Of a stretch of 24,000 nt of DNA, positions 2,689-18,830 are shown one piece after another. Origin of the DNA: an uncultured Thermoplasmata archaeon. GTDB lineage: Archaea > Thermoplasmatota > Thermoplasmata > GCA-020350865. The notes beneath the pieces were generated by a model that saw nothing but the letters and a program-made list of their open reading frames with translations, had not been told where the DNA came from and ran no database searches. The number at the start of each line of letters is the position of its first letter. Within the stretch, counting starts at the first letter, position 1. Where the stretch lies: contig CBDUXN010000001.1 in the NCBI GenBank assembly GCA_965371185.1, forward strand, positions 1 to 24,000, written 5' to 3'. Made by a program: the position numbers and the translations under genes.

Positions 2689-2697
2689 TAGAATCAC

Positions 2698-3793: not shown

Positions 3794-4753
3794 ATGGTAA
3801 AAGTGGCAGAAGAATGGCTTAACATCTGTGGCGGTTGTGAAGTAACTATTTTGGACATCGGTGAACCATTGCTGGATCTGCTTGCGCAGCTGGAGTTCGT
3901 GCATATACCTGTTCTGATGGACCACAAGTATTTTGGACAGACTGGTGAAGACGATACGAACATCATCCAGATACCAGAAGCGGATGTGGGCATAATCTCC
4001 GGCGGTGTGAGGAACGAGAAGGAGAAGCATGTGGCAGAGGCGATGCGAAAGAGCTGTAAGACGCTAATAGCGCTGGGCTCGTGCGCATGTTTTGGTGGCA
4101 TCCCTGCCTTGGCGAATATGTATACATTGGAGGATCTGTGCAATAAAGTGTACAGGGAATCCAAGACTACGGAGCCGGCAGACACTCCTAAGGAGAACTT
4201 ACCGCCTCTTTTGGACAGGGTTTATGCAGTGGATGAGATCATAAAAGTTGATGTGGCTATTCCAGGTTGCCCAACAAATCCTGTTCTAATCGTTGAGGCT
4301 TTAACAGCTCTTTTAGAAGGTAAGGAGTGGTCAATGCCTGAGAGAAGCGTTTGCGATGACTGTCCAGTAAAGAGAGAGAAGAAGGCCGAAGTGACGATCA
4401 AAAGACCTCTGCAGGATGCACAGTTTACTCCGGGCGAATATGACAGCTGGCGATGCTTCAACGAGCAGGGGATCATTTGCTTGGGCACTGTAACGAAATC
4501 CGGATGTGGCAAAACAGCTACAGAAGGAGAGCAAACGGTACCTCGATGCGTTAAAGGATACATGCCGTGCAGAGGGTGCTTTGGGCCGATAAGAAAGGGC
4601 GCCAATCCACTGGTGGACATGATGAGCGCGATGTCAAGCATCGGTTTGAATGCTAGAGATGTTGACGATAGAAGAGCGCTGCTGAACAGATACATCGGAG
4701 CACAGAAGAGGTTGAGACCATTACCTGCGAGACCCAGACCTGGAGGGGGGTGA
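3794..4753 (+). CDS. mvhG: F420-non-reducing [NiFe] hydrogenase small subunit (MvhG/VhuG type)
   Basis: Cys-rich small-subunit pattern: NICGGCEV, LGSCACFGGIPA, IPGCP, CDDCP, CLGTVTKSGCG, CRGCFGP. It is separated by 5 nt from the large-subunit gene, which has its own GGTGAT SD. Confidence 0.9.
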   Translation: MVKVAEEWLNICGGCEVTILDIGEPLLDLLAQLEFVHIPVLMDHKYFGQTGEDDTNIIQIPEADVGIISGGVRNEKEKHVAEAMRKSCKTLIALGSCACFGGIPALANMYTLEDLCNKVYRESKTTEPADTPKENLPPLLDRVYAVDEIIKVDVAIPGCPTNPVLIVEALTALLEGKEWSMPERSVCDDCPVKREKKAEVTIKRPLQDAQFTPGEYDSWRCFNEQGIICLGTVTKSGCGKTATEGEQTVPRCVKGYMPCRGCFGPIRKGANPLVDMMSAMSSIGLNARDVDDRRALLNRYIGAQKRLRPLPARPRPGGG

Positions 4754-4758
4754 TATAA

Positions 4759-6204
4759 ATGGGAAAGACTCTTACAATAGCACCGGTATCGAGAATTGAA
4801 GGTCATGCGAAAGTGACCATTCAACTGGACGATGCAGGCAATGTTGCAGATACCTTCGTCAACGTGGTGGAACTTAGAGGCTTTGAGAAGTTCTGCATCG
4901 GCAGGCCAGTGGAGGAATTACCAAGGATAACCACCAGCATATGCGGTGTGTGCCCGTGGTCGCATCATCTTGCCTCAGCAAAGGCGAATGATGCAGTTTT
5001 TGGTGTGGAGCCCCCACCTGCCGGCAGGAAATTGAGGGAGCTGTGTAACAGCATAGCCTTTACAGAGGAACACATCCTGCACTTCTTCTTCCTTGCAGGA
5101 CCCGACTTCGTGATGGGTCCGGATGCGGACTACTCTGTTAGGAACGTTATAGGCATCGCTCAAAAGTTCCCGGACATCGGAAAGAAGGTGGTAAGGAACA
5201 GGCATTTGGGTGCACAGATGCTTACCATTGTCTCAGGCAAATCAATACATCCTGTTACCGCGGTACCAGGCGGTTTCAGCAAGCCACTTACGGCAGCTGA
5301 AAAGGATAAAGTACTCCCAATGGCAGAAGAGGTGCTTGAGTTCGCAAAGTTCGCAATAAAATTTGCAAAAGAGGATCTATTCTCGAAATACATCGATACT
5401 GTGAAGACGCTCGGGGTCATAAAAACAGGCTTTTTGGGCACGGTTCGTGACGATGGATCAATGGACCTATACGATGGTAAAGCGAGGCTCATGAAGCCGG
5501 ACGGAAGCTATGAGGAGTTCGAATATACCAACTACACGGATTATATAGAAGAAAAAGTCTTACCCTGGACCTACCTTAAGTTCCCGTATGCAAAGAGCTG
5601 GGGCGAAGGATTCGATATGAATCTGGACGCACCTAAAGGCATCTATAGGACGAACACATTGGCAAGAATAAACGTTGTGGACAAGATTCCCACGCAGCTA
5701 GCGCAGGCGGAGCTTGAAGAGTTCCGCAAGGAGTTCGGAAGACCAGCACAACAGACACTATTGTACAATTGGGCCAGGTTGATTGAGTTACTGTACAACG
5801 CAGAGTACATGGTGGAACTGCTCAACGATCCGGAGATAACCAGCACGGAAACAAGGGTCCCGGTTACACCCAGGGCCGCTCATGGTATCGGCGCTACCGA
5901 AGCACCGAGAGGCACTTTGATCCATGATTACGAGACAGACGAAAGGGGCATGGTCACGAATGTGAACCTGATCGTTGGTACAACCCACAACAACGCTCCA
6001 ATAAACATGTCGGTGAAACAGGCTGCTACGAGTCTAATAAAAGACGGCAAATATGACCAGGGCATTTTAAACCAGGTTGAGATGAGCATTCGGGCATATG
6101 ACCCGTGCCTGAGCTGTGCAACCCATAACCTGGACGGTACCATACCAGTGAAAGTGGACATAATGGATCATAGGGGAAAGCTGCTGAATACCTTTAAAAA
6201 TTAA
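4759..6204 (+). CDS. mvhA: F420-non-reducing [NiFe] hydrogenase large subunit (MvhA type, group 3c-like)
   Basis: N-terminal RIEGH and [NiFe] ligand motif ICGVCPWSHH. C-terminal DPCLSCATH is followed by a 25-aa tail, the part removed by the maturation endopeptidase. The 481-aa size and the MvhG/MvhD neighbours fit Mvh. Confidence 0.95.
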   Translation: MGKTLTIAPVSRIEGHAKVTIQLDDAGNVADTFVNVVELRGFEKFCIGRPVEELPRITTSICGVCPWSHHLASAKANDAVFGVEPPPAGRKLRELCNSIAFTEEHILHFFFLAGPDFVMGPDADYSVRNVIGIAQKFPDIGKKVVRNRHLGAQMLTIVSGKSIHPVTAVPGGFSKPLTAAEKDKVLPMAEEVLEFAKFAIKFAKEDLFSKYIDTVKTLGVIKTGFLGTVRDDGSMDLYDGKARLMKPDGSYEEFEYTNYTDYIEEKVLPWTYLKFPYAKSWGEGFDMNLDAPKGIYRTNTLARINVVDKIPTQLAQAELEEFRKEFGRPAQQTLLYNWARLIELLYNAEYMVELLNDPEITSTETRVPVTPRAAHGIGATEAPRGTLIHDYETDERGMVTNVNLIVGTTHNNAPINMSVKQAATSLIKDGKYDQGILNQVEMSIRAYDPCLSCATHNLDGTIPVKVDIMDHRGKLLNTFKN

Positions 6205-6252: not shown

Positions 6253-6699
6253 TTACATCCTGTAAGGACTCGGTCCCAAGGCTTTTATCTGCTCCGTCAT
6301 CTCCTTCATAACCTCTGCGAACCTTTGACCTTCTGATGCGGAAATCCATTCCAAGCGATATCGCTCAGGCTCGAGGCCCAAATCCTCCAATAGAAGGAAG
6401 ATCGCATCTGCTCTTTTCTCAGCTATCAGGTTGCCTTCAATGTAATGACAGTCTCCAGGGTGGCAGCCGCACATCAGAACTCCGTCAGCACCTTTTGAAA
6501 GGGCATCGATCACTAAATTGGGATGGACCATCCCTGAGCACATGACGCGGATTATCCTGATATTCGATGGATATTGAAGTCTTGAAGTGCCTGCCAAATC
6601 TGCCCCGGTGTAGGAACACCAGTTGCAACAAAATGCGATTATCAACGGCTCGAAATCCTCTTCTCCTGCTATTCCTTCAGTTGTCCCCCCCTCCACCAT
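6253..6699 (-). CDS. mvhD: MvhD-type hydrogenase/Hdr-bridging [2Fe-2S] subunit (minimal 148-aa form)
   Basis: FlpD/MvhD Cys pattern: FCCNWCSYTGADLAG, RVMCSG, GADGVLMCGCHPGDCHY. ATG directly abuts the stop of the upstream HdrA gene (TAAATG), and GGAGGTGG SD lies inside the upstream gene. Confidence 0.92.
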   Translation of the reverse strand: MVEGGTTEGIAGEEDFEPLIIAFCCNWCSYTGADLAGTSRLQYPSNIRIIRVMCSGMVHPNLVIDALSKGADGVLMCGCHPGDCHYIEGNLIAEKRADAIFLLLEDLGLEPERYRLEWISASEGQRFAEVMKEMTEQIKALGPSPYRM

Positions 6700-9600
6700 T
6701 TAAGCCACCTCCAATACTGCATCTACCATTGCACCCAACTGATTCAATTTGAAACCTTTCACCATTATTCCCTGCTTTGGACAGGTCGCCATGCAAACCC
6801 CACAGCCCTTGCAGGCGGTTTCGTTTCTCTCCACGGTCTTTTTTACCTGTCCGTTTCTCATATACTCGATTAGAGTCAATGCATTATATGGACAAGGATC
6901 TATGCAGTAAGCACAGCCGTCGCAGTTCTCATCTATTACCTCAGAGATCGTGGGCTCAAGTTCCATCGTTTCATTGCAGAGAATCGTGCATGCCCTGGAT
7001 ACCGTACCGCATGCCTGAGAGATGCTTTCATCGATGAATTTCGGGCCATGCGCCAGCCCACAAAGGAACACACCATCATTTGCGAAGTCAACTGGACGAA
7101 GCTTCATATGCGCCTCCAAGAAGAATTTATCCTTGCTCAGCGGAACTTTAAGCATCTGAGCCAATTCTTCATTGTCAGGTTGTGGGAGTGTTGCCGCGCT
7201 CAAAACAACATATTCGGTTTTGATCGTTATCTGTTCGGTCAGTATCGGGTCTGTTACGGTTACGGCCATACCGTCTCCATTCTTAGCGACTTCCGGCATA
7301 TGTTCATCATCGTATCTAATGAATCTCACACCCTTGTCCGCGGCTTCCCTGTAGTAGTCCTCCCTGAAACCATAGGATCGAATGTCCTTGTATAGCACGA
7401 AAATCTCTGCATCAGGGTTCCTCTCCTTGATCTTCAGCGCGTTCTTAATTGCATCTGCACAGCATATCCTGCTGCAATATGGTCTTTCCTCGTTTCGTGA
7501 ACCCACGCACTGAATCATGACCACGCTGTTCGGCTTGAGGTCGGCCTTGGCCAGCTTTTCCTCCAGTTCCATTTGTGTCAAGACGCGCTCATCCTGTCCA
7601 TACAGGTATTCCTTAGGTTTATACTCCAATCCACCGGTAGCGACTATGACAATACCATGCTCGATTTCCGTTTCATCTGAGAGCACGGTTTTAAAATTAC
7701 CCACGAACCCTTCGATGCTCTTCACCGTTGTTCCGAGATGTACCTTGATTTTCTCGTTGTCCACGACCTTTTCAACGGTTTGTTTTAAAATCTCCTGCGG
7801 ATCCTCGTCCTTCTCGCTGAGCACATAGTGAATTCTTCTTAAATTCCCGCCGAGTTCCTTCTCTCTTTCCACGAGATGAACTTCGTAGCCCTGTTTTGCC
7901 AGTTCTAACGCGGCAGTCATACCACTCAAACCCCCTCCGATTACCAGTCCCGACTGAAACACGTTTAAGGTTAATTCGTATAAGGGTTCAAGCAGCCTTG
8001 ACTTCGCTACAGCCATTCTTACCAGATCTTTCGCCTTCAGGGTTGCTTTTTCAGGTTCGTGCATATGAACCCAGGAGCATTGGTCTCTGATATTCGCCAT
8101 TTCAAAGAGGTAGGGGTTCAGACCGCCTTCCTTGGTGGTGCTTCTGAAAAGAGGTTCATGGGTCCTTGGAGTGCAGGAAGCCACAATAACCCTGTTTAAG
8201 TTGTGCTCTTGGATTTTCTCCTTGATACCTTTCTGAGTGTCTTCCGAGCAGGTATAGAGGTTGTGCTCAGAATAAACCACATTCGGCAAAGTCTTAGCGT
8301 ATTCCACAATCTCTGGGACATTAACCACTCCTCCAATATTGATGCCGCAATGGCATATAAAGACACCTATGCGTGGCTCCTCATCGCTAATATCCCTCTC
8401 TGGAGGATACTCTTTGATAGTGATCATTTTTCCTCTCTCAGAGGAGATCATCGAGGATGCTTTTGCTGCCGCACCGCTTGCCTGCGCCACCGTATCGGGA
8501 ATGTCCTTGGGACCGTTGAACACACCGCTGACGAATATCCCGGGTTTGGAGGCCTCTAGAGGCGTGAATACGCCAGTATCGCAGAAATTGTACCTGTTCA
8601 GTTCGATGCCGACCTTTTCTGCCAATTCCTTTACGTTCTCTGGCGGTTGAAATCCTGTAGATAGGACAACGAGGTTGAACTCCTCCTCCTTCAGCTCTCC
8701 ATCTTCCACATACTTCACCATCAAATTCTGAGTTTCAGGCACCTCCGTGATCTCAGCCACCCTGCATCTTGTGAACCCTATTTTATGCTCCTCCTCTGCC
8801 CTCTTGTAGTAATCGTCAAATTCCTTACCGAACGCCCTGAGATCCATGAAGAATATGTGGGATTTCAAGCCCTCAGAGTGCTCCTGTGCGATTATGGCCT
8901 CTTTTAAGGCGAACATGCAGCATACCGATGAGCAGTATTCGTTTCCCATCTGGCTGTCCCTGCTCCCAACGCATTGGATGAACGCCACCTTCTCAGGTAT
9001 GTCACCGTCGGAAGGGCGCATTACCGTGCCCGCGAATGGGCCTGTGGCACTCAAGAACCTCTCGAATTCCATGCTCGATACGACGTTTTTGTATCTGCCG
9101 TAACCGTATTCTGTCTTCAGGGAAGGGTCGAACATGCTGTAACCCGGAGAGAGGATGATGGAGCCCACATTGAGGTCAAATTTCTGCTCCTCCTGGTCGT
9201 ACTCCACTGCATTGGCCTTGCACTCCTCCTCGCATATACCACAGCCTATGCACTTCTCCTTATCTATCATGAATTTTAGGGGCACAGACTGAGGATAACG
9301 AATGAACATAGCCCCTCTTTTTGTGAGCCCCCAGTTGTATTCATCGATGGCCTCAACAGGGCATTTGGAGCCGCATACACCGCATCCGGTACATTTCTCC
9401 TCGTTGATCCTTCTCGGTCTTCGAACGAGCGTCACTTTGAATTTACCTGCCTCGCCTTCCACGGATTCGATCTCCGTGTTGCTGATGACCTCGATGTTAT
9501 GATGCCTGCCTGTGCCAACAAGTTTCGGAGCCATGATGCACATAGCACAGTCGTTGGTGGGGAAAGTCTTGTCCAATTGGGACATCACCCCACCTATGCT

Positions 9601-9717
9601 GGGCAGTTTGTCGATAAGATACACCTTGAAACCTGAATCTGCCAAATCAAGTGATGACTGCATCCCGCTTATTCCGCCGCCAACAACCAGCACGGCCCCG
9701 ATCTTATCACCGCTCAT
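6700..9717 (-). CDS. hdrA: Tandem-fused double HdrA-like flavoprotein (1005 aa), copy 1
   Basis: First half: VVGGGISGMQSSLDLADSG, DKTFPTNDCAMCIMAPK, inserted 2x[4Fe-4S] ferredoxin (CTGCGVCGSKCP, CIGCGICEEEC), CVGSRD..YCSSVCC. Second half: HdrA N-terminal-domain motif GVFICHCGINIGG..ASCTPRTH..CSWVH, a second VIGGGLSGMTAALELAKQG, CVGSRNEERPYCSRICC, FLEAHMKLRPVD, and a C-terminal ferredoxin (CDGCAYCIDPCP, CKGCGVCMATCP). ATG overlaps the upstream stop (ATGA at 9714-9717), with GGAGGTGA SD. Confidence 0.9.
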   Translation of the reverse strand: MSGDKIGAVLVVGGGISGMQSSLDLADSGFKVYLIDKLPSIGGVMSQLDKTFPTNDCAMCIMAPKLVGTGRHHNIEVISNTEIESVEGEAGKFKVTLVRRPRRINEEKCTGCGVCGSKCPVEAIDEYNWGLTKRGAMFIRYPQSVPLKFMIDKEKCIGCGICEEECKANAVEYDQEEQKFDLNVGSIILSPGYSMFDPSLKTEYGYGRYKNVVSSMEFERFLSATGPFAGTVMRPSDGDIPEKVAFIQCVGSRDSQMGNEYCSSVCCMFALKEAIIAQEHSEGLKSHIFFMDLRAFGKEFDDYYKRAEEEHKIGFTRCRVAEITEVPETQNLMVKYVEDGELKEEEFNLVVLSTGFQPPENVKELAEKVGIELNRYNFCDTGVFTPLEASKPGIFVSGVFNGPKDIPDTVAQASGAAAKASSMISSERGKMITIKEYPPERDISDEEPRIGVFICHCGINIGGVVNVPEIVEYAKTLPNVVYSEHNLYTCSEDTQKGIKEKIQEHNLNRVIVASCTPRTHEPLFRSTTKEGGLNPYLFEMANIRDQCSWVHMHEPEKATLKAKDLVRMAVAKSRLLEPLYELTLNVFQSGLVIGGGLSGMTAALELAKQGYEVHLVEREKELGGNLRRIHYVLSEKDEDPQEILKQTVEKVVDNEKIKVHLGTTVKSIEGFVGNFKTVLSDETEIEHGIVIVATGGLEYKPKEYLYGQDERVLTQMELEEKLAKADLKPNSVVMIQCVGSRNEERPYCSRICCADAIKNALKIKERNPDAEIFVLYKDIRSYGFREDYYREAADKGVRFIRYDDEHMPEVAKNGDGMAVTVTDPILTEQITIKTEYVVLSAATLPQPDNEELAQMLKVPLSKDKFFLEAHMKLRPVDFANDGVFLCGLAHGPKFIDESISQACGTVSRACTILCNETMELEPTISEVIDENCDGCAYCIDPCPYNALTLIEYMRNGQVKKTVERNETACKGCGVCMATCPKQGIMVKGFKLNQLGAMVDAVLEVA

Positions 9718-10499
9718 GCCTTCACCTCCTGCATTATGGAGATGTATTTCGGTGTAAAACCGTCGATGCTATCAAGTGCCAACTGATTTTTCTTTCTCAA
9801 ATAAACTACGTGATCCAGAACCTTGTCAGTGGGGATTTCGATCTCCTTGGCAAGCTCCTTTACAGACATCGGATTCTCTTTTATCAGCTCCAGGAGCCTC
9901 TTTCTATAAAACTCAGCTTCTACAGCATCCCCCATAAACTCGTCCCATTCCTCCTGGGTTTTCTTCTCATTGTAAACGTTGCCCAGCTCCACGATCTGTC
10001 TCTCTTTGGCTACAATGGCTCGAAGCCTGAAGTCCAATGCTGCAAGCTTTGCAGCGTTTACGTTCTGCAAAAGTTTCTCATCAGGCTTCTCGCCAGCCAA
10101 TGGGCTTGGCCCCAATTCTTTGATTTGGTTTGTGAATTCCCTCACCAGCTTTGCGAAACGCTCGCCCTCCGAGGCTGCCACCCATTCCATTCTCAGCCTT
10201 TCAGGCTCCAACCCTGCTCTTTTCACAAGTTGTCTCGTCATTTTAATTTTCCTCTCGGCCTGATAGTTACCTTCAAGGTAATGACAGTCCCCGGGATGGC
10301 ACCCGCCAATGAACATACCGTCAACGCCTTGAGCGAAGGCCTCGAGTATAATGTAAGGATCGATCCTACCAGAGCACATCACTCTGATGATCCTGATGTT
10401 CGGTGGATATTGGAATCTGCTCACGCCGGCCAGATCTGCTCCTGCGTATGAGCACCAGTTGCAGAGGAAACCAACGATCTTGGGCTCGAATTCCACCAT
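9714..10499 (-). CDS. MvhD-type protein with ~125-aa C-terminal extension ending in a winged-helix-like domain (261 aa)
   Basis: The core (res 1-133) matches MvhD: FLCNWCSYAGADLAG, RVMCSG, GGCHPGDCHY. The extension has a conserved helical segment (DFRLRAIVAKERQIVELGNVYNE) and then RLLELIKENPMSVKELAKEIEIPTDKVLDHVVYLRKKNQLALDSIDGFTPKYI, read as helix-turn-helix plus wing. Confidence 0.85.
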   Translation of the reverse strand: MVEFEPKIVGFLCNWCSYAGADLAGVSRFQYPPNIRIIRVMCSGRIDPYIILEAFAQGVDGMFIGGCHPGDCHYLEGNYQAERKIKMTRQLVKRAGLEPERLRMEWVAASEGERFAKLVREFTNQIKELGPSPLAGEKPDEKLLQNVNAAKLAALDFRLRAIVAKERQIVELGNVYNEKKTQEEWDEFMGDAVEAEFYRKRLLELIKENPMSVKELAKEIEIPTDKVLDHVVYLRKKNQLALDSIDGFTPKYISIMQEVKA

Positions 10500-13400
10500 C
10501 TATCCCACCTCCCTCACTGCTGCCTTAACCTGGGCTATCAGCTGTTCGTCTGTAAATTGTTTTAGTGATACCGCCTTTTCAGGGCAGCTCGCCGCGCAGG
10601 TCCCGCAGCCCTTGCAAAGCACCTCGGTTACTCTCGCTATATCGTTCTCGTCCTTCTCTATCGCGTTGAATGGGCATAGCACAACGCAAGTACCACATCC
10701 TGTACAGATATTCTCATCTATGGTGGAAACCACCCCTTCTGCCTCAAGGATCTCTTTGGAGAGGATCGTGGAGGCTCTTGATACGGCAGCGCTCGCTTGG
10801 GAAACACATTCCTCAAAGAATTTTGGTGAGTGGGCAAGTCCGCAAAGGAATATACCTTCAGTGGCGAATTCTACGGGACGAAGCTTCATATGCGCTTCCA
10901 AAAAGAATCCATGCTTGCTCAGCGGCACCTTCAACATCTGCGCCAACTCACCGTTATCTGGGTGTGGTATTGTGGCTGCGCTCAAAACCAGAAGGTCTGG
11001 TTCAATTACAATTTCCTCGTCAAGGAACTGCTCTTTGATCTTCACCCTCAAACCCTTCTTATCGCTCACCTCGGGTTTTGTTTCGTCATCGTATCTAATG
11101 AACTTTATACCTTTTTTCGCTGCCTCCTCATAAAACACCTCGCTGAAACCGTAGGTTCTGATATCTTTGAATAGCACATAGACATTTGCATCCGGTTTCA
11201 ACTCCTCGATCTTTAGGGCGTTTTTCACTGCCTCGGTGCAGCATACTCTACTGCAATACGGCCTCTCTTCATTTCTGCAGCCAACGCATTGAATCATTAC
11301 TATGGTATCTGCATCGACCTTACTCTTAGCCAGCCTTTCCTCCAGTTCCAGTTGGGTTAGAACATTTTTATTTTTACCGTAAAGGTACTCCGTAGGCTTG
11401 TACTCCTGTCCTCCAGTTGCCACTATGACTATTCCATGCTCGATTTCCTTATCTTCGCCGTTATGGTCTACAAGCGTTTTGAAGTTGCCAATATATCCCG
11501 ATATATTTTTCACTGTGCTGTTTGTGAATACATGGATCTTTTCATCTGAATCAATGCTTTTTATCAGTTTTTTCATTTTTTTCTGGATGTCCTTCTTCTC
11601 GCCAACCATTTCGTAATGTATTCGTTTCATTAGACCTCCAAGTTCATTCTCCCTTTCAACGATGAACGCCTCATAGCCTTGTTTAGAAAGCTCTAATGCT
11701 GCGGTCATGCCGCTCAATCCACCCCCTATGACCAGACCTGAAGGTTTAATGTCTATGGGAACTCGTTTTAAGGGCTCAAGTAAACCAGCCTTTGCCACCA
11801 CCATTCTTACCAAATCTTTGGCTTTTTGTGTTGCTTTCTCAGGTTCATGCATATGCACCCATGAGCACTGGTCGCGAATATTCGCCATCTCAAAAAGATA
11901 CGGGTTTAAACCCGCCTCAGCCACCGTATTTTGGAAAAGGGGTTGATGTGTTCTAGGAGTGCACGATGCAACTATCACTCTGTTCAATCCGTGCTCTTCG
12001 ATCTTTTCTCCGATCTTCTTTTGCGTATCCTGAGAGCATGTGTAGAGATTATTCTCAGCATAGACCACATTTGGTAGTGTCTTTGCATACTCCACCACCT
12101 CAGGTACATTCACTACACCACCTATGTTGATGCCGCAGTGGCATACAAAAACACCTACGCGGGCCTCTTCACCACTTATATCTCTCTCTGGTGGGTACTC
12201 CTTTACAGTGACCAGTTTTCCACGCTCAGAGGCGATGACAGATGAAGCTTTGGCTGCTGCACCACTTGCCTCTGACACGCTGTCAGGGATATCCTTTGGT
12301 GCACCAAATGCTCCGCCTACAAATATCCCGGGGCGAGAGGTCTCTAACGGGGAGAACAATATATCTGTAGAGCAAAAATCGTATGGGTTCAGCTCTATAC
12401 CGAGCTTGGTGCTCAGATCCTCTGCATCCTTTGGTGCTGTCATTCCCACAGCCAGTGCTACCATATCGAACTCCTCTGAGACCAGTTGCCCTTCTTTGAT
12501 ATAAGTTATGAAAAGATTATTGGTTTCCGGGTCCTCAGCGATAGAGGATATCCTGTTGTTTTTTATGAAGTTTATACCATGCTCTTTCTCAGCCCTTATG
12601 TAGTAATCATCGAATTCTTTACCGAAGGCACGCATATCCATGAAGAATATGGTTGCCTTCAAGCCCGGGGTGTGCTCCTGCGCTATCACAGCCTCCTTTA
12701 TCGCGAACATGCAGCAAACAGAGGAACAATATGGGTTGCCGATGCTTCTGTCTCTGGAACCCACACATTGTATGAACGCTATCTTCTTCACCAGCTCCCC
12801 ATCTGAGGGCCTTAAAACCAATCCACCGTATGGACCTGTGGCGCTGAGCATCCTCTCCAGCTCAAGGCTTGAAACAACGTTTGGATACCTGCCGTAGCCG
12901 TATTCCCTTCTCTTTTTGAGTAAATCAAATTCATCAAAACCAGGTGAGACAATTATTGAACCCACATTCAATTCTTGTGTTTCCTCCTCTTGGTTGTAAA
13001 CGATTGCACCTGCCGTGCAGTTTCTTTCACAGTTTCCGCAGCCGATGCAATGATCTTTATCTATGGTGAATATTAGTGGCACAGCTTGAGGATATCTAAC
13101 GTAGATAGCTTTGCGAACCTTGAGACCTTTATTGTAGTCATCCACTACCTCAACAGGGCACTTTTGGGTACAGATTCCACATCCAGTACATTTGTTCTCA
13201 TCTACATATCTGGACCTTTTGATGATGGTGACCTTGAAATTACCTGCATCCCCTTCGACCTTCTCTAAATGCGCATTCGTTATCAGATCTATATTACGAT
13301 GCCTTCCAGTCTCAACCAATTTTGGGGCCATGATGCACATGGCACAGTCGTTTGTGGGAAAGGTTTTATCAAGCTGGGCCATAGCCCCGCCGATGCTCGG

Positions 13401-13511
13401 GCTTTTGTCCAAAAGGTATACTCTAAACCCTGAATCGGCCAAGTCCAGGGAGGACTGCATGCCTGCGATTCCTCCACCCACAACCAGAACTGCTCCTACC
13501 GCATCGGTCAT
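10500..13511 (-). CDS. hdrA: Tandem-fused double HdrA-like flavoprotein (1003 aa), copy 2
   Basis: Same motif series as copy 1: GGGIAG, DKTFPTNDCAMC, CTGCGICTQKCP, CIGCGNCERNC, GVFVCHCGINIGG, GGGLSG, CVGCRNEERPYCSRVCC, CTGCGTCVVLCP, CKGCGTCAASCP. ATGA overlap with the upstream MvhD-like gene (13508-13511). Its stop abuts the next ATG (10499/10500). Confidence 0.9.
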   Translation of the reverse strand: MTDAVGAVLVVGGGIAGMQSSLDLADSGFRVYLLDKSPSIGGAMAQLDKTFPTNDCAMCIMAPKLVETGRHRNIDLITNAHLEKVEGDAGNFKVTIIKRSRYVDENKCTGCGICTQKCPVEVVDDYNKGLKVRKAIYVRYPQAVPLIFTIDKDHCIGCGNCERNCTAGAIVYNQEEETQELNVGSIIVSPGFDEFDLLKKRREYGYGRYPNVVSSLELERMLSATGPYGGLVLRPSDGELVKKIAFIQCVGSRDRSIGNPYCSSVCCMFAIKEAVIAQEHTPGLKATIFFMDMRAFGKEFDDYYIRAEKEHGINFIKNNRISSIAEDPETNNLFITYIKEGQLVSEEFDMVALAVGMTAPKDAEDLSTKLGIELNPYDFCSTDILFSPLETSRPGIFVGGAFGAPKDIPDSVSEASGAAAKASSVIASERGKLVTVKEYPPERDISGEEARVGVFVCHCGINIGGVVNVPEVVEYAKTLPNVVYAENNLYTCSQDTQKKIGEKIEEHGLNRVIVASCTPRTHQPLFQNTVAEAGLNPYLFEMANIRDQCSWVHMHEPEKATQKAKDLVRMVVAKAGLLEPLKRVPIDIKPSGLVIGGGLSGMTAALELSKQGYEAFIVERENELGGLMKRIHYEMVGEKKDIQKKMKKLIKSIDSDEKIHVFTNSTVKNISGYIGNFKTLVDHNGEDKEIEHGIVIVATGGQEYKPTEYLYGKNKNVLTQLELEERLAKSKVDADTIVMIQCVGCRNEERPYCSRVCCTEAVKNALKIEELKPDANVYVLFKDIRTYGFSEVFYEEAAKKGIKFIRYDDETKPEVSDKKGLRVKIKEQFLDEEIVIEPDLLVLSAATIPHPDNGELAQMLKVPLSKHGFFLEAHMKLRPVEFATEGIFLCGLAHSPKFFEECVSQASAAVSRASTILSKEILEAEGVVSTIDENICTGCGTCVVLCPFNAIEKDENDIARVTEVLCKGCGTCAASCPEKAVSLKQFTDEQLIAQVKAAVREVG

Positions 13512-14293
13512 GCCTCCACCTCCTGCGTCTCCGCGATATAAAGGGGCGTCGTGCCCTCTATTCCCTCCAATCGTATCAAATTCCGGTCCCTCAGAGTCAC
13601 GACATGCTTGAGAACTTCCCTAGAAGGCACTTTCATCTTTTTTGCCAACTCTTTAACAGATCTGGGTTTATCTTTTGCGAGAAGAAGTATCCTCGTGCGC
13701 ACAAGTTCCTCTACAATGGCAGTATCCATCAATTCATCCAATCTCTCCTGCGATATATTTTCATCATAGACGTTTCCCTTTTCCACTAACCCAAGCTCCT
13801 TTCCCACCAGCGTCCTCAATCTGAAATCTTCCACAGCATTTCTTGCGGCGTACAACGCCTCCATTGTTTCCAAATCAGGTTTCTCCCCTGCCACAGGATT
13901 GGGTCCTAGCCCCTTGATTTGTTCAGTGAACTTTTTTATCGTTTCCGCAAACCTCTCACCTTCGGAGGCGGCGATCCACTCAAGCCCTAATCTTTCTGGC
14001 TCGAGATTGGATTGTGCAAGCACCTTTCTGAGCATTTTCACCCTTCTCTCAGTATGATAATTGCCCTCCATGTAATGGCAATCACCAGGATGGCAACCGC
14101 CGATCAGAACACCATCAGCACCTTGCAGAAACATCTCCACTACGAATAAAGGATCGACTCTGCCAGAGCACATGACCCTCACGATTCTGATGTTCGGTGG
14201 ATACTGGAATCTGCTCACACCCGCCAAATCGGCTCCCGCATAAGAGCACCAGTTGCAAAGAAAGCCTACTATCTTCGGCTCAAATGCCGTCAT
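13508..14293 (-). CDS. MvhD-type protein with C-terminal winged-helix-like extension (261 aa)
   Basis: FLCNWCSYAGADLAG, RVMCSG, GGCHPGDCHY. The extension is DFRLRTLVGKELGLVEKGNVYDE ... RILLLAKDKPRSVKELAKKMKVPSREVLKHVVTLRDRNLIRLEGIEGTTPLYI. AGGAGAGTGA SD lies in the 19-nt spacer upstream. Confidence 0.85.
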   Translation of the reverse strand: MTAFEPKIVGFLCNWCSYAGADLAGVSRFQYPPNIRIVRVMCSGRVDPLFVVEMFLQGADGVLIGGCHPGDCHYMEGNYHTERRVKMLRKVLAQSNLEPERLGLEWIAASEGERFAETIKKFTEQIKGLGPNPVAGEKPDLETMEALYAARNAVEDFRLRTLVGKELGLVEKGNVYDENISQERLDELMDTAIVEELVRTRILLLAKDKPRSVKELAKKMKVPSREVLKHVVTLRDRNLIRLEGIEGTTPLYIAETQEVEA

Positions 14294-14312: not shown

Positions 14313-14597
14313 TCACTCCGGTTCTACTCCAGACATCAAACCTCTTACACAAACAGAAAAATTACAGGCATCGGTTCTCGCCCTCTCACAGTAATGGCAC
14401 CGCAACGTTAACAACACTTCCCTGATGATCCATTCTTTTGTCTCGTCGTCAACATCTGGAAGATTCTTTTTGATGTCTTCTATGCTTTTGGTTTGCACAT
14501 CCTTCCATTTCGGCTGTGTTGAAAGGAGCATCCTTTTCTTCCAGGCATTCCTCATCTCCTCTATCTTCTTCTGCTCTTCTTCGTTTAATTCGCTCAA
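14313..14597 (-). CDS. Small Cys4 protein (94 aa), paralogue of 17605-17913
   Basis: Conserved block with its paralogue: W.(D/Q)VQTK.I...LP(D/E).D(D/E)ETK..I.R..LLTLRCH(Y/S)CERAR(T/S)D(A/E)CNFSVC(V/I)RGL, i.e. CX2CX7CX4C. TTG start overlaps the HdrA stop (TTGA 14594-14597) and is preceded by AGGAGGGGAT SD. An internal ATG (EEMRNAW) is a possible alternative start. Confidence 0.6.
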   Translation of the reverse strand: MSELNEEEQKKIEEMRNAWKKRMLLSTQPKWKDVQTKSIEDIKKNLPDVDDETKEWIIREVLLTLRCHYCERARTDACNFSVCVRGLMSGVEPE

Positions 14598-17500
14598 GCG
14601 ATCCCCTCCTTAAGTGCAGCGACAGCCTGTGCAAGAATCTGCAAATCCGTAAAGTGGGCAATATCAATGGCCTTCTCAGGACAAGCAGCGCTACAGGTGC
14701 CGCATCCCTTGCATAATACCTCGGCCACCTTCGCCTTCAATTCTTCCATATCAACACTTACTGCCCCGTACGGGCATACCATTTCGCAGGTACCGCAGCC
14801 TGTACATTTTTCCTCATCAACAGAAGATACCACCCCCTCAACAAAGAGCCTCTCTTTCGATAGAATCGTGGCAGCTCTTGAAACAGCAGCGCTTGCCTGT
14901 GAGATACATTCGTTAAAGAATTTGGGCGAATGAGCCAAGCCGCACATGAAGATGCCATCTGTTGCGAATTCCACTGGACGCAGCTTCATATGCGCTTCCA
15001 AGAAAAATCCGTCCTTACTCAAGGGTACCTTCAGCAGTTGTGCCAATTCAGAGTTGTCTGGGTTGGGAAGCGTTGCGGCGCTCAACACCAGGTAATCTGG
15101 TTTCAATACGATATCCTCATTCAGAAAATGATCAAAAACCTTGACTTGTAGGCCATCATCATCGGTAGCCACCGGCTTCGTTTCGTCATCGTATCTGGTG
15201 AAATTGACACCCTGCTTTGCCGCCTCTTCGTAGTAAATTTCCCTGAAACCGTATGTTCTCATATCCTTATACAGGATGAAGACGCTGATATCGGGATTCT
15301 TTTCTTTAACCTTCAATGCATTTTTAACGGCCTCCACACAGCACACCCTGCTGCAGTAGGTTCGAGCTTCGTCCCTGCAACCTACACACTGGATCATAAC
15401 CACCGTTTTGGCTTTGGGATTCAATTCATTATTGAACAGAATATTATCGAATTCTAGCTGGGTAAGCACTTTTTCATTTTTACCGTATAAGTACTCCGTA
15501 GGTTTGTATTCGATACCACCTGTGGCAACGATAATTGCCCCATGTTCAAGGGTCTTCTCTTCGCCATTATGATCCAAGGTACTGACGAAGTTCCCGACAT
15601 AGCCCGAGACGTTCTTTATCACCGTATTTTTATAGACGGTAATTTTGTCGTTTGCCTCGACCTTTGAAAGGGTCTCATTCAGATACCCAGGGATATCTTC
15701 CCCCTTTAAACCGTAATGGAGTCTTTTTACCAGTCCTCCCAATTCATTCTCCTTCTCCACCAGGTAGGCCTCAAATCCCTGCTCCGCAAGTTCCAAGGCT
15801 GCCTGCATCCCGCTTATTCCTCCGCCTATTACCAGGGCGGATTGTTTTACCTCGATCGATATCTTTGGCAGTGATGTGTTCAATCTCGCTTTTGCCACCG
15901 CCATCCGTACCAGATCTTTCGCCTTCTCCGTGGCTCTTTCCGGATCGTTCATGTGGACCCACGAGCACTGATCGCGAATGTTCGCCATCTCAAAGAGGTA
16001 CGGGTTCAAACCTCCTTCAGCCACAGTGTTTTGGAACAATGGCTGATGTGTCCTGGGAGTGCAAGAGGCTACCATCACACGATTGAGGTTATGCTCCTTG
16101 ATCATCTCCTTTATGTGCTCCTGTGCATCTTGGGAACACGTGTACAGATTATCTTCCGCATGAGCGACATTCGGCAGTGTTTTCGCATATTCCACAACAC
16201 CAGGAACATCCACAACACCCCCGATATTAATGCCGCAATGACAGATAAAAGCTCCAATGCGAGGCTCCTCACCAGAAACATCCTTCTCCTCTGGATATTC
16301 CTTTACCGTGGTGAGCGTATCCCTTTGTGATGAAATGACGCTCGACGCTCTTGCTGCTGCTCCAGAAGCTTGGGCAACGCTGTCAGGAATGTCCTTTGGA
16401 TCCTGGAACACACCGGATACGAATATTCCCGGCTTGTTCGTACCTATGGGAGAGAATATGGTGGTACTGCAGAAGTCGAAATCGTTTAATTCGATCCCCA
16501 ATTTTTCGCCCAGCTCTTTTGCATGTTTGGGGTGTTCCATGCCCACCGCAAGAACGACTAAATCGAACTCTTCCTCCTTTAGTTCGCCCTCCTCGATATA
16601 TACTATTTTGAGATTCTTTGTATCACGCATCTCCTCAACAGAAGAAATGCGATTGTTGCTGACAAATCTCACTTTATGTTCATCGGCAGCCCTGATGTAA
16701 TAATCATCGAATTCCTTGCCGAAGGCCCGCATGTCCATGAAGAATATGGTTGAACTCAGGCCTGGAGTATGTTCTTGCGCTATAACCGCCTCTTTTATTG
16801 CGAACATGCAGCATACTGAGGAGCAGTATGGGTTGCCGATGCTTCTGTCTCTGGAACCCACACACTGGATAAATGCTATTTTCTGGGCTATCTTTCCATC
16901 CGATGGTCTGAGAACAACACCTCCATAGGGGCCAGTTGCGCTCAGCATGCGCTCCAATTCGAGACTTGATACAACGTTGGGAAATCTGCCGTAGCCGTAC
17001 TCCCTTCTCATGGTGCTCAGATCGAACTCCTCGAACCCTGGAGACACGATGATCGAGCCCACGTTCAGTTCCATATCTTCCGGTGTTTGGGAATATTGTA
17101 TCGCCCCAGCCCTGCACTGGGTATCGCAGATGCCGCATCCTATGCAGTGATCCTGGTCTATGCAATGGGTTGGAGGTACAGCCTGGGGATATCCGATGTA
17201 GATCGCCTTTCTGACCTTGAAGCCCCTGTTGTACTCATCCTTGACCTCAACAGGGCAGCGCTGTGTACACAGACCGCAGCCTGTACATTTGCTCTCGTCC
17301 ACGTACCGGGGCCTTTTACTCACGGTGACCTTGAAATTGCCTGCCTCGCCTTCCACCTTTTCCACATCAGCATTCGTTATCAGCTTGATGTTGTGATGTC
17401 TTCCCGTCTCAACCAACTTAGGGGCCATGATGCACATTGCACAGTCGTTCGTTGGGAACGTTTTGTCCAACTGAGCCATGGCACCGCCAATGCTGGGTGA

Positions 17501-17608
17501 GCTGTCAACTATGTACACATAATAACCTGAATCAGCCAAATCCAGTGACGACTGCATGCCTGCTATTCCGCCGCCTATGACAAGAACAGCACCCACCTTA
17601 TCGCTCAT
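14594..17608 (-). CDS. hdrA: Tandem-fused double HdrA-like flavoprotein (1004 aa from ATG 17608), copy 3
   Basis: Motif series as copies 1-2: GGGIAG, DKTFPTNDCAMC, CTGCGLCTQRCP, CIGCGICDTQC, GAFICHCGINIGG, GGGISG, CVGCRDEARTYCSRVCC, CTGCGTCEMVCP, CKGCGTCSAACP. The track start (17662) adds 18 non-homologous residues. ATG 17608 (MSDKVGAVLVIGGG) aligns with the paralogues, has GGAGGTG 7 nt upstream, and forms ATGA with the upstream stop. Confidence 0.9.
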   Translation of the reverse strand: MSDKVGAVLVIGGGIAGMQSSLDLADSGYYVYIVDSSPSIGGAMAQLDKTFPTNDCAMCIMAPKLVETGRHHNIKLITNADVEKVEGEAGNFKVTVSKRPRYVDESKCTGCGLCTQRCPVEVKDEYNRGFKVRKAIYIGYPQAVPPTHCIDQDHCIGCGICDTQCRAGAIQYSQTPEDMELNVGSIIVSPGFEEFDLSTMRREYGYGRFPNVVSSLELERMLSATGPYGGVVLRPSDGKIAQKIAFIQCVGSRDRSIGNPYCSSVCCMFAIKEAVIAQEHTPGLSSTIFFMDMRAFGKEFDDYYIRAADEHKVRFVSNNRISSVEEMRDTKNLKIVYIEEGELKEEEFDLVVLAVGMEHPKHAKELGEKLGIELNDFDFCSTTIFSPIGTNKPGIFVSGVFQDPKDIPDSVAQASGAAARASSVISSQRDTLTTVKEYPEEKDVSGEEPRIGAFICHCGINIGGVVDVPGVVEYAKTLPNVAHAEDNLYTCSQDAQEHIKEMIKEHNLNRVMVASCTPRTHQPLFQNTVAEGGLNPYLFEMANIRDQCSWVHMNDPERATEKAKDLVRMAVAKARLNTSLPKISIEVKQSALVIGGGISGMQAALELAEQGFEAYLVEKENELGGLVKRLHYGLKGEDIPGYLNETLSKVEANDKITVYKNTVIKNVSGYVGNFVSTLDHNGEEKTLEHGAIIVATGGIEYKPTEYLYGKNEKVLTQLEFDNILFNNELNPKAKTVVMIQCVGCRDEARTYCSRVCCVEAVKNALKVKEKNPDISVFILYKDMRTYGFREIYYEEAAKQGVNFTRYDDETKPVATDDDGLQVKVFDHFLNEDIVLKPDYLVLSAATLPNPDNSELAQLLKVPLSKDGFFLEAHMKLRPVEFATDGIFMCGLAHSPKFFNECISQASAAVSRAATILSKERLFVEGVVSSVDEEKCTGCGTCEMVCPYGAVSVDMEELKAKVAEVLCKGCGTCSAACPEKAIDIAHFTDLQILAQAVAALKEGIA

Positions 17609-17913
17609 CTGAACACCTCCTGACCGGAGAGGAGACCTCTTATACATACGGAGAAGTTGCACTCATCACTCCTCGCCCTCTCACAGCTGTGGCATCTCAA
17701 CGTTAGGAGCATGTTCCTAGTGATTTTCTTCTTCGTCTCTTCATCGATTTCGGGCAGTGAGGCCAAGCATTCCTGGATGATTTTGGTTTGAACCTGCCCC
17801 CATCTTGGGAGCGTGGAGATGCGTTCCCGATCTTGCCAGGAATCTCTTATCATCTTTATTCTCCCCTTTGTACCTTTGCTCTTAGACTTGGTAGGGGGTT
17901 CTTCTCTCTTCAT
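17605..17913 (-). CDS. Small Cys4 protein (102 aa), paralogue of 14313-14597
   Basis: Same C-terminal block, LLTLRCHSCERARSDECNFSVCIRGLLSG. Basic N-terminus (KREEPPTKSKSKGTKGRIK). ATG overlaps the upstream MvhD-like stop (ATGA 17910-17913), with GGAGGTG SD. Confidence 0.65.
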   Translation of the reverse strand: MKREEPPTKSKSKGTKGRIKMIRDSWQDRERISTLPRWGQVQTKIIQECLASLPEIDEETKKKITRNMLLTLRCHSCERARSDECNFSVCIRGLLSGQEVFR

Positions 17914-18830
17914 CTGAGCACCTCCTCTTTCAGGGTTATGTAAAGAGGCATCACGCCGTCGAACTTGTCCACCATAACCAAACCTCTATCTTTAAGGGTG
18001 ACGATATGCTGCAGCACCTTTTGCGGGGGGAGTTGGATATTGGAAGCGATATCTATAACGGAGTAGGGTCCGTCCATGGTCATAAGAAGAATTTTCTGCC
18101 TGGCAATCTCATCATCTATCGCTCTCTCCATAAGATCGTCAAATTCTTCCTGCGAAAGCTTGTTATCGTAGACATTGCCCTTCTCTATCAGCTCAATTTC
18201 TTTGGCCACAAGAGACCTCAACCTGAAATCCCTTACAGCGTTCTTGGCGGCGAAGAGGGTTTCAAGTTTTTCAATGTCGGGCTTATCTCCCGCTACAGAA
18301 CTGGGGCCCAGAGCCTTTATTTCATTAACAAAATCCTCCACAACCTTGGAAAATCTCTCGCCTTCCGATGCGGATATCCATTCCAAGCGCAATCGCTTCG
18401 GTTCAACTCCTGCCTTCTCGATCAATTTTCTTGCCAGCTTGACCTTCTTCTCTGTGAAGTAATTTCCTGTTATATAGTGACAATCGCCGAGATGGCAGCC
18501 TCCAACGAGCACACCATCCGCACCGTGAATGAACATCTCAATTATGAGAACAGGGTCAATCCTGGAGCTGCACATTACCCGAACCGTCCGAGTGTTTGTA
18601 GGATACTGGTATCTGCTCACGCCCGCCAAATCCGCACCTGCGTAAGAGCACCAGTTGCAGAGAAAGGCTATGATCTTCGGCTCGAATTCTTTTCCAGTTT
18701 TTTCCTCTTCTGCTTTGGCTTCAACTTTCTTTTTGAGCTTTAATTTGATGGTTTTCTTCTTTGGCTTCTCAGCTTTATCTTCCACTTTCTCCTCTTTAGA
18801 GGCGTTTTGTAAGCTCTGTTCTTCGCTCAA
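17910..18830 (-). CDS. MvhD-type protein with Lys/Glu-rich N-terminal extension and C-terminal winged-helix-like extension (306 aa)
   Basis: Core: FLCNWCSYAGADLAG, RVMCSS, GGCHLGDCHY. C-terminal extension: DFRLRSLVAKEIELIEKGNVYDN ... KILLMTMDGPYSVIDIASNIQLPPQKVLQHIVTLKDRGLVMVDKFDGVMPLYI. The N-terminal 47 aa are K/E low complexity. TTG start (TTGA overlap 18827-18830) is supported by GGAGGAGGTGG 5 nt upstream and by the absence of any internal Met before the core. Confidence 0.8.
   Translation of the reverse strand: MSEEQSLQNASKEEKVEDKAEKPKKKTIKLKLKKKVEAKAEEEKTGKEFEPKIIAFLCNWCSYAGADLAGVSRYQYPTNTRTVRVMCSSRIDPVLIIEMFIHGADGVLVGGCHLGDCHYITGNYFTEKKVKLARKLIEKAGVEPKRLRLEWISASEGERFSKVVEDFVNEIKALGPSSVAGDKPDIEKLETLFAAKNAVRDFRLRSLVAKEIELIEKGNVYDNKLSQEEFDDLMERAIDDEIARQKILLMTMDGPYSVIDIASNIQLPPQKVLQHIVTLKDRGLVMVDKFDGVMPLYITLKEEVLR

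Follow-up and report, generated by a model that had tools for sequence, protein, structure and literature searches.

Fused double HdrA proteins in a Thermoplasmata operon: probable single-chain, asymmetric bifurcation cores

HdrA, subunit A of heterodisulfide reductase, is the flavoprotein that performs electron bifurcation at the centre of several anaerobic complexes for energy conservation. The canonical protein has about 650 residues, carries all four domains in each protomer and is encoded together with HdrBC; its homodimer is symmetric, with two equivalent circuits and 12 clusters. A stretch of 24,000 nucleotides from an uncultured Thermoplasmata archaeon (contig CBDUXN010000001.1, positions 1 to 24,000; hereafter the window) encodes three proteins of about 1000 residues, F1, F2 and F3, each with two thioredoxin reductase-like (TrxR-like) units for flavin adenine dinucleotide (FAD). 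Their domains, ligands and flavin residues are all homologous to those of canonical HdrA, whereas each half of the chain holds only a subset of the domains. What kind of enzyme does such a chain make, and at which of its two flavins would electrons be bifurcated? We consider it likely that each of these proteins is a covalently fused, asymmetric HdrA 'dimer' of the type described for BamE, and the bifurcating core of an Mvh/Hdr-like complex. If so, the fused protein reveals which parts of the homodimer form one working circuit and offers a natural minimal wiring diagram for bifurcation. Four publications have presented the concept of a fused double HdrA before (Chadwick 2022, Kremp 2022, a 2024 survey of archaeal fusions and a 2026 cryo-electron microscopy preprint on BamE). 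The fused form is widespread and already described, and the window is a good new example of it, not a discovery. Conceptually it adds little; its merit is that it presents, cleanly and in an archaeon, three fused paralogues and an unfused version in one operon.

Complementary halves in one chain

The original prediction, made by reading the DNA alone, listed three large open reading frames (ORFs), and we find them at exactly those positions, on the minus strand. Its estimate that the proteins are two-thirds to three-quarters identical and clearly diverged in DNA is close to the measured pairwise identities, 64-72 % for protein and 70-72 % for DNA. The start of F3 was set at ATG 17608, in preference to an upstream GTG at 17662, because it gives a 4-nt overlap with the stop of the preceding ORF, like the other junctions. 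The same operon holds a fourth, unfused copy, which adds to the three fused copies that had been listed: split A and split B are together collinear with the fused proteins and 46-50 % identical to them. The features that bear on the architecture are as follows.

6700..9717, minus strand: F1, fused double HdrA, 1005 residues (ORF; match to 5odc_A at E=6.5e-209; AlphaFold model)
8428..9717, minus strand: F1 half 1, residues 1-430, with a TrxR-like FAD core, Cys pair, inserted ferredoxin and the cluster HA4 (aligns with HdrA 146-~570)
9538..9549, minus strand: Cys pair C57-x-x-C60 in DKTFPTNDCAMC, equivalent by alignment offsets to Cys194/197 of M. thermolithotrophicus and Cys202/205 of M. marburgensis
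9190..9420, minus strand: inserted 2x[4Fe-4S] ferredoxin of half 1, about residues 100-176 (Pfam Fer4 at 103-170; eight Cys aligned to HdrA 246-303)
8380..8427, minus strand: inter-half linker, residues 431-446, lying after the TrxR match and before the N-domain match
6700..8379, minus strand: F1 half 2, residues 447-1005, with an N-terminal Cys domain, another TrxR-like FAD core that has an HA4-type cluster, and a C-terminal 2x[4Fe-4S] ferredoxin (aligns with HdrA 2-234 and 318-648)
10500..13511, minus strand: F2, fused double HdrA, 1003 residues (ORF, Pfam, identity to F1 and F3, Cys mapping)
14594..17608, minus strand: F3, fused double HdrA, 1004 residues (ORF, Pfam, identity to F1 and F2, Cys mapping)
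20710..22011, minus strand: split A, unfused HdrA of half-1 type, 433 residues (Pfam, and NCBIfam HdrA2 at positions 140-562; Cys pair, inserted ferredoxin and HA4)
18827..20710, minus strand: split B, unfused HdrA of half-2 type, 627 residues (family matches, Cys mapping; 1-nt overlap with split A)

In a phmmer search of the PDB, F1 matched HdrA of M. thermolithotrophicus (5odc_A) at the E-value listed above in three collinear pieces: residues 9-371 correspond to HdrA 146-510, residues 446-599 to HdrA 2-155, and residues 845-1000 to HdrA 497-648. Half 2 as the sole query covers HdrA 2-234 and 318-648, which is the entire protein minus the inserted ferredoxin; it has a Cys-free stretch where HdrA has LDKTFPTNDCSIC. 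The PDB copy searched with F1 contained no solved structure of a fused double HdrA. The HdrA proteins of the window score below the NCBIfam cut-offs (HdrA2, 1009.6 bits against 1100; HdrA, 746 against 1400; hdrA_Methbact, 733 against 1300). Their present annotation is simply 'HdrA family protein', a name that conceals their fused nature and may lead astray those metabolic reconstructions of Thermoplasmata, Bathyarchaeia and Asgard archaea in which HdrA genes are counted as evidence of heterodisulfide reduction.

A mapping of individual Cys residues defines what each half has kept. The 5ODC HdrA sequence, rebuilt from HMMER output, was aligned with both halves of 30 family members and with the split pair. 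Half 1 retains Cys194 and Cys197, the eight Cys of the inserted ferredoxin and the four of HA4, and has lost the N-terminal domain and the C-terminal ferredoxin; half 2 retains the five Cys of the N-terminal domain, four HA4 Cys and the eight of the C-terminal ferredoxin, and has lost the inserted ferredoxin. Both patterns hold in all 30 members, and bear out the complementary domain sets that had been predicted. At the positions of the Cys pair, half 2 has Asp in place of Cys194, and Glu, Lys or Gly in place of Cys197. Split A shows the pattern of half 1 and split B that of half 2. In F1, the residues present are G13xG15xxG18, E219 and K272 (equivalent to Glu356 and Lys409 of HdrA) and C249/C262/C266/C267 in half 1; and C455/457/490/515/547, G594xG596xxG599, E719, K758, C737/748/752/753 and C932-C979 in half 2. 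Each fused chain is predicted to carry 2 FAD and 7 [4Fe-4S] clusters.

An AlphaFold2 model of F1, built on a 34-sequence alignment, has a mean pLDDT (predicted local distance difference test) score of 82.7 and a predicted template modelling score (pTM) of 0.84, and the stretch around the linker, residues 431-450, has pLDDT values of 86-90. Foldseek matched the model to the HdrA core 8rwn_A, which comprises TrxR and inserted ferredoxin (template modelling (TM) score 0.94, root-mean-square deviation 1.7 Å, 46 % identity), and to full-length HdrA 5odi_A (TM 0.76, 37 % identity). The first match probably represents half 1, judging from identity and length, and the second would represent half 2. 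Foldseek is chain-based and sequential, and its matches support the fold of each half, not the mutual geometry of the two. The only long segments of the model with pLDDT below 50 are residues 45-57 and 870-880 (window 9547-9585 and 7078-7110). The former is the loop leading to C57, with C60 just past it; the latter is HMKLRPVDFAN of half 2, in the conserved HdrA region FFLEAHxKLRPVD that half 1 has lost. Both segments may depend on cofactors or partners for their order.

A probable single circuit and the role of the second flavin

How would two such halves work together? In the HdrA homodimer, as seen by cryo-electron microscopy of Elp-Hdr and Mvh-Hdr-Fmd complexes, a mobile arm serves the partner protomer (PMC12350162, PMC13580544). 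The [2Fe-2S] cluster of the arm's MvhD nears the Cys pair of the partner (Cys202'/205' in M. marburgensis) and its flavin, FAD'; from FAD', the high-potential electron passes through HA4' to HdrCB, and the low-potential electron passes through the shuttle cluster of the arm to HA5'/HA6' of the partner's inserted ferredoxin (PMC12350162, PMC13580544). The arm of one protomer, made up of its N- and C-terminal domains with docked MvhD, would in this way serve the FAD, Cys pair, HA4 and inserted ferredoxin of the other. In the fused proteins, half 2 would supply the arm and half 1 the core that the arm serves, and the parts specific to the reciprocal circuit would all have been lost. From this complementary retention we infer that the fusion keeps exactly one of the two symmetric cross-protomer circuits, the one centred on the flavin of half 1. 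Electrons would enter from the [2Fe-2S] cluster of an MvhD docked on the half-2 arm and pass C57/C60 to the half-1 FAD. Bifurcation there could send the high-potential electron through the HA4 of half 1 to an HdrBC- or HdrD-type partner encoded outside the window, and the low-potential electron through the shuttle cluster of the arm to the inserted ferredoxin of half 1 and on to ferredoxin. The core of half 2 would mainly scaffold the arm, and its flavin would lie off the branch point.

BamE provides a precedent for this arrangement. This subunit of the class II benzoyl-CoA reductase (BCRII) of G. metallireducens is described as a 'fused HdrA dimer' in a single chain, with 2 FAD and seven [4Fe-4S] clusters, E1-E7 (bioRxiv 10.64898/2026.04.10.717634). 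Its TrxR1 unit holds the bifurcating FAD with Lys280, Cys59-Cys62, E4 and the inserted ferredoxin E5/E6; the shuttle cluster E3 and the C-terminal ferredoxin E1/E2 follow, together with a TrxR2 unit that has E7 and a non-bifurcating, structural FAD contacting Gln768 (bioRxiv 10.64898/2026.04.10.717634). F1 shares the domain order and cofactor count of BamE, and its C57/C60, K272 and K758 have parallels in BamE by numbering. Where the TrxR2 flavin of BamE contacts Gln768, the window proteins have Lys (K758), again by numbering. The prediction of a hard-wired, asymmetric HdrA heterodimer with division of labour is thus supported by complementarity in 30 of 30 members, by an intact half 2, by the high pTM of the F1 model and by the BamE precedent.

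The prediction had further raised the possibility that one flavin bifurcates and the other is ordinary, and this part agrees with the observations, with one caveat. As a criterion for a bifurcating HdrA flavin we took the pair Glu356 and Lys409 (Appel 2021, in the form in which it is applied by Kremp et al. 2022, PMC9430772). GxGxxG, with the GG motif downstream of it, is retained in both halves. Equivalents of Glu356 and Lys409 are present in half 1 of all 30 members, and in half 2 each is present in 29 of 30; the Glu is Asp in F3. The pair also occurs in split pairs and in bacterial relatives. A TrxR-like FAD site (GxGxxG and Glu356/Lys409) with the C-x12-C-x3-CC motif of HA4 is thus found in both halves of F1 and F2, and in F3 with Asp for the Glu of half 2. 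This substitution marks a lineage (F3 residue 721; bin33_a1021; bin983_a1010) in which the Lys is retained. Other changes set half 2 apart from canonical HdrA, namely the altered Cys-pair loop, a deletion of 9-13 residues around HdrA 363-375, and GPKF(I/F) in place of GPKDIP. In its FAD-contacting and cluster-ligating residues, half 2 is not decayed.

Across the wider family the two flavin sites differ. When 1.84 billion cluster representatives (50 % identity) were scanned in full with phmmer, 13,124 matched at E<=1e-3 and 3,066 at E<=1e-30. We analysed the best 150 representatives (37-59 % identity) and counted conservation in the 139 of at least 900 residues, by alignment columns; simple patterns for the Cys pair and the N-domain proved too strict for such distant representatives. 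The Glu356 equivalent is present in half 1 of 135 of these 139 and in half 2 of 105. For the Lys409 equivalent the counts are 133 and 94, with Arg, Glu, Gln, His and others as substitutes in half 2, and for the HA4 Cys they are 137 and 133. A half-1 site that is near-invariant and a half-2 site that is relaxed are what bifurcation at the flavin of half 1, with no such demand on that of half 2, would lead one to expect. This asymmetry is a simple sequence-level argument for which flavin bifurcates, and it agrees with the BamE structure. The family-wide asymmetry and BamE thus favour the predicted split into one bifurcating and one ordinary flavin; the half 2 encoded here still carries Glu and Lys, and since the window's subfamily keeps them, its flavin cannot be called ordinary on this criterion alone.

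Several points weigh against the interpretation of these proteins as fused, single-circuit HdrA dimers. Retention of Glu/Lys in half 2 of the window's subfamily leaves room for a second catalytically competent flavin, and HdrA of M. thermoacetica likewise has Glu/Lys in both TrxR domains (PMC9430772). The dimer-like packing of the two halves within a chain is presumed from model scores, not from coordinates, and closeness of C60 to the cluster of the N-terminal domain likewise stands as a prediction. The correspondence between F1 and BamE is one of residue numbering and domain description, not of alignment. No gene for HdrB, HdrC or HdrD (CCG or HdrC type) was found in the 24-kb window, and the ORFs flanking the equivalent loci of the closest genomes (L002, L003) also point to none, as judged by size. 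Finally, the helix-turn-helix (HTH)-like fold of the extended MvhD adaptors described below draws on weak Pfam matches and a model from a shallow alignment.

Alternatively, the fused protein could be a two-flavin enzyme in which both FAD sites are catalytic and possibly both bifurcating, with half 2 receiving or delivering electrons by a non-canonical route, for instance through a hydride donor or through an additional HdrBC-like partner at its HA4. Speaking for this possibility are the Glu/Lys pairs in both TrxR domains of M. thermoacetica HdrA, the GxGxxG, HA4 Cys and Glu356/Lys409 equivalents that half 2 keeps in F1 and F2, in the split pair and in almost every close relative, and an FrhB-like gene upstream of the array both here and in a related Thermoplasmata locus (L072). 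We nevertheless consider it unlikely: without a Cys pair or inserted ferredoxin in half 2, and without an arm from half 1, the half-2 flavin has no known input or low-potential exit; the half-2 signature is relaxed in the wider family; and the second FAD of BamE is reported to be non-bifurcating and structural.

A further possibility is that the halves pair between chains, half 1 with half 1' and half 2 with half 2', so that the fusion merely tethers two homodimers. The BCRII complex is itself dimeric at the level of BamED. Such pairing is highly improbable, however, because half 2:half 2' would leave the N-domain clusters without a Cys pair, and half 1:half 1' would leave Cys pairs and inserted ferredoxins without an arm. 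AlphaFold also places all domains of F1 in one confident body, BamE is described as a fused dimer within a single chain, and tandem split genes with equal complementarity occur in many lineages. Fusion of the two unlike protomers of one working unit is the reading that we carry into the comparisons below.

Family breadth and known systems

The form of about 1000 residues is widespread, as the length survey proposed with the original prediction now reveals. Among the best 150 representatives, 107 have 900-1199 residues, 32 have 1200-1600 and 11 are shorter than 900, many of these probably fragments. Two CxxxCC motifs are present in 138 of the 150, and 101 of the 139 distant representatives combine the Cys pair with the N-domain Cys residues and both HA4 motifs. 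Of the 32 long representatives, 31 carry extra sequence within the inserted ferredoxin, placed past the position of F1 residue ~150. The insert has about 300-500 residues and lies between the two cluster motifs of that ferredoxin (P0122-P0127 and others of 1200-1530 residues; L063, 4645-9123; L028, L029, L034, L037); in L063 it is GltD/DPD-like, with Fer4_20 and Pyr_redox_2. These inserts match the NfnB/GltD-type inserts described for HdrA9-11 of anaerobic methanotrophic archaea (ANME) and for Moorella HdrA. One representative, P0165 (1089 residues), was the only one found with another order: an N-domain motif at 16, a Cys pair at 219, and CxxxCC at 434 and 838. Its motifs suggest that a unit resembling canonical HdrA comes first and another TrxR unit after it, possibly an independent type of fusion.

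In a neighbour-joining (NJ) tree, which is distance-based, midpoint-rooted and without support values and serves for rough grouping only, the fused proteins, whether archaeal or bacterial, all fall in a single clade, and the split pairs all fall in a separate one. F1 clusters with those fused copies of Bathyarchaeia, Freyarchaeota and Jordarchaeia that stand beside a plain MvhD, and F2 and F3 fall in a Thermoplasmata-specific expansion adjacent to MvhD genes with an HTH-like extension (MvhD-HTH). This grouping implies that the fusion is old and that F1-F3 are not recent duplicates. A decayed duplicate, or a spurious long ORF produced by read-through or assembly from two adjacent genes of the split-pair kind, could have been suspected from the unfused pair of the same gene order in the same operon, and is effectively refuted by three independent copies in the window, by the family lengths, by the separate clade of fused forms, by cofactor ligands invariant in both halves, and by a linker that is conserved and confidently modelled.

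Related architectures are known from several systems. In ANME, HdrA3 and HdrA4 (>1000 residues) are two-HdrA fusions with complementary loss of Cys197 and the N-domain, proposed to be their own heterodimeric partners (Chadwick et al. 2022, PMC9012536), and the tandem HdrA5/6 and HdrA12/13 show the same complementarity (PMC9012536). The ANME gene orders 'HdrA13 HdrA12 MvhD8' and 'HdrA6 HdrA5' match the split pair and MvhD of the window (PMC9012536). As compared by description, the unit order differs: the text of that paper puts the unit with the N-domain first in HdrA3/4, whereas the unit with the Cys pair comes first in the window. The ANME clusters also usually include HdrBC/HdrD and FdhAB-like genes and belong to Halobacterota hosts, unlike the Thermoplasmata host considered here.

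The HdrA proteins of S. ovata (101 kDa) and M. thermoacetica (162.8 kDa) likewise have two TrxR units, each assessed for Glu356/Lys409 (Kremp et al. 2022, PMC9430772). In HdrA of the Hdr-type methylene-tetrahydrofolate reductases, an extra N-terminal TrxR unit precedes a unit of N-domain, TrxR and C-terminal ferredoxin without inserted ferredoxin, which is the order seen in the window (PMC9430772). Unlike the window proteins, S. ovata HdrA has five predicted clusters, no inserted ferredoxin in its first unit and a single Glu/Lys pair, and Moorella HdrA has a GltD insert and three FAD sites (PMC9430772). The window contains no MetF or MetV gene. It also contains no BamB (tungsten AOR-type), BamC, BamD or BamGHI (HydABC-like) gene; the context is an Mvh-type hydrogenase. 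We considered whether bacterial relatives are BamE orthologues in Bam clusters; the one locus annotated (L063, 54-55 % identical to the window protein) is instead a cluster of HdrCB, long HdrA, MvhD, MetF and an HdrD-like gene.

QmoA and QmoB of sulfate reducers are two distinct HdrA-like FeS flavoproteins that act together, with an MvhD-like domain fused to QmoB. The comparison with QmoA/QmoB drawn in the original prediction is a fair analogy for the split pair with its MvhD, and goes no further: membership in the Qmo systems was rejected, as the window has neither the membrane-bound, cytochrome-b/HdrC-like QmoC of that complex nor aprBA, which encodes the AprAB that it works with, and MvhD is a separate gene, not fused as in QmoB.

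The operon, its adaptors and its surroundings

Local gene content was assessed across the window. Between 22011 and 6253, eleven ORFs of the minus strand follow one another so closely, with overlaps of 4 nt or 1 nt or gaps of no more than 19 nt, that they form one operon. The order is split A (433 residues), split B (627), MvhD-HTH (306), orf102, F3 (1004), orf94, MvhD-HTH (261), F2 (1003), MvhD-HTH (261), F1 (1005) and MvhD (148); each HdrA copy is translationally coupled to an MvhD gene that follows it. The operon is convergent with a hydrogenase gene pair whose subunits match VhuG (5.4e-65) and VhuA (2.3e-136) in NCBIfam, both under the curated cut-offs. The remaining features of the array are listed here.

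6253..6699, minus strand: plain MvhD, [2Fe-2S] adaptor, 148 residues, directly downstream of F1 (Pfam FlpD, E=4.8e-56)
9714..10499, minus strand: MvhD-HTH, 261 residues, downstream of F2 (FlpD, E=6e-56; weak PF0610-like_N; 5odc_D, E=1.1e-56)
13508..14293, minus strand: MvhD-HTH, 261 residues, downstream of F3 and orf94 (FlpD; weak HTH_20; alignment)
17910..18830, minus strand: MvhD-HTH, 306 residues, TTG start, downstream of the split pair (FlpD; weak HTH_5)
17605..17913, minus strand: orf102, small ORF with a Cys motif, 102 residues, upstream of F3 and translationally coupled (no family match; paralogue of orf94)
14313..14597, minus strand: orf94, small ORF with a Cys motif, 94 residues, downstream of F3 (paralogue of orf102)
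3794..6204, plus strand: Mvh/Vhu-type [NiFe]-hydrogenase, small (319 residues) and large (481 residues) subunits (Pfam Oxidored_q6, NiFeSe_Hases)

This window stands out by combining a split module and three fused ones within a single operon, MvhD adaptors of two kinds, an Mvh hydrogenase without HdrBC, and Glu/Lys kept at the second flavin site.

The four MvhD genes match FlpD at E-values of about 1e-52 to 1e-56, and three of them have a conserved C-terminal extension of about 125 residues. In Foldseek structural alignments the proteins are 55-60 % identical to solved MvhD chains. They keep Cys16, His68 and Asp71 (compared with 5odc_D), three residues turned towards the Cys pair in the structure from M. 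marburgensis (cryo-electron microscopy, PMC12350162/PMC13580544); BamF, by contrast, has a selenocysteine where the window MvhD has Cys16. In a model of the 261-residue protein at 9714-10499, residues 1-135 match MvhD (TM 0.83) and the extension is helical, with two long and three short helices. Its sequence runs AGEKPD..FRLR..VAKE..GNVY and then reaches an HTH-like three-helix end; a fold search found no PDB match for the extension beyond the MvhD domain. In Bathyarchaeia and Freyarchaeota, too, the gene after the split pair is an MvhD-HTH, of 257 residues.

BamF, a homologue of MvhD, exceeds it in length by more than 100 residues, and its winged HTH docks the input module BamI (bioRxiv 10.64898/2026.04.10.717634). 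In outline, the extended MvhD proteins of 261 and 306 residues resemble BamF. F1 with its plain MvhD probably docks the adjacent Mvh hydrogenase, and F2, F3 and the split pair, by analogy with BamF, probably connect to other input modules through their MvhD-HTH adaptors. One could envision the whole operon as coding for single-circuit bifurcation cores that can replace one another (a split one and three to four fused, each with its MvhD) beside a single Mvh hydrogenase and without HdrBC, plugged to different inputs through plain MvhD or BamF-like MvhD-HTH, with the half-2 flavin, which uniquely keeps Glu/Lys in this subfamily, as a second catalytic flavin. We regard this composite picture as quite improbable. 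Were it true, a catalytic half-2 flavin would make a two-flavin HdrA, with a mechanism unseen in BamE or canonical Hdr.

Similar arrays occur elsewhere. F2 is 87-88 % identical to copies in the Thermoplasmata/Methanomassiliicoccales metagenome-assembled genomes (MAGs) CP070739 and CP070751, and the closest genomes, bin33 and bin396 (L002, L003), carry four fused copies together with hydrogenase genes in the same convergent arrangement. The block of split A, split B, MvhD-HTH, fused HdrA and MvhD recurs in Thermoplasmata bin983, in a Bathyarchaeia MAG and in a Freyarchaeota MAG. In the latter two, HdrC-type and CCG-domain (HdrB-type) genes lie downstream of the fused HdrA-MvhD pair, directly adjacent in Freyarchaeota.

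The small ORFs orf102 and orf94 flank F3 as translationally coupled paralogues and share the motif ...LLTLRCH[YS]CERAR[TS]D[AE]CNFSVC[VI]RGL..., that is CxxC-x8-C-x5-C. Neither has a Pfam or NCBIfam match. They may encode a small metal- or FeS-binding accessory subunit. In bin983, a 119-residue ORF with no recorded Pfam match (L072, 5745-6104) occupies the equivalent place and is likened to them by position alone.

Upstream of the array, an ORF with an FrhB/FdhB C-terminal domain lies at 23449-23985 (minus strand), and bin983 has a full FrhB of 409 residues directly upstream of its split pair (L072, 34-1263). Likeness to ElpB and FdhB hints that F420H2 could serve as an alternative electron donor. 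Adjoining the hydrogenase genes are a HycI-type endopeptidase gene (3064-3552, minus strand) and a gene for an AIR-synthase-family protein of 357 residues (1624-2697, minus strand), which could be HypE-like; together they suggest a maturation set for the Mvh-type enzyme. Two tandem paralogues of TATA-binding protein, of 185 and 182 residues (22206-22763 and 22760-23308, minus strand, 4-nt overlap), are encoded about 194 nt upstream of the Hdr operon; with the FrhB-like fragment, they identify the host as archaeal. At the other end of the window, an HTH-nucleotidyltransferase gene (187 residues) overlaps an ORF with a HEPN domain (114 residues; 613-1504, plus strand) in what looks like a toxin-antitoxin-type pair of the MNT/HEPN kind, and beside it is an ORF of the PD-(D/E)XK nuclease family (27-554, plus strand).

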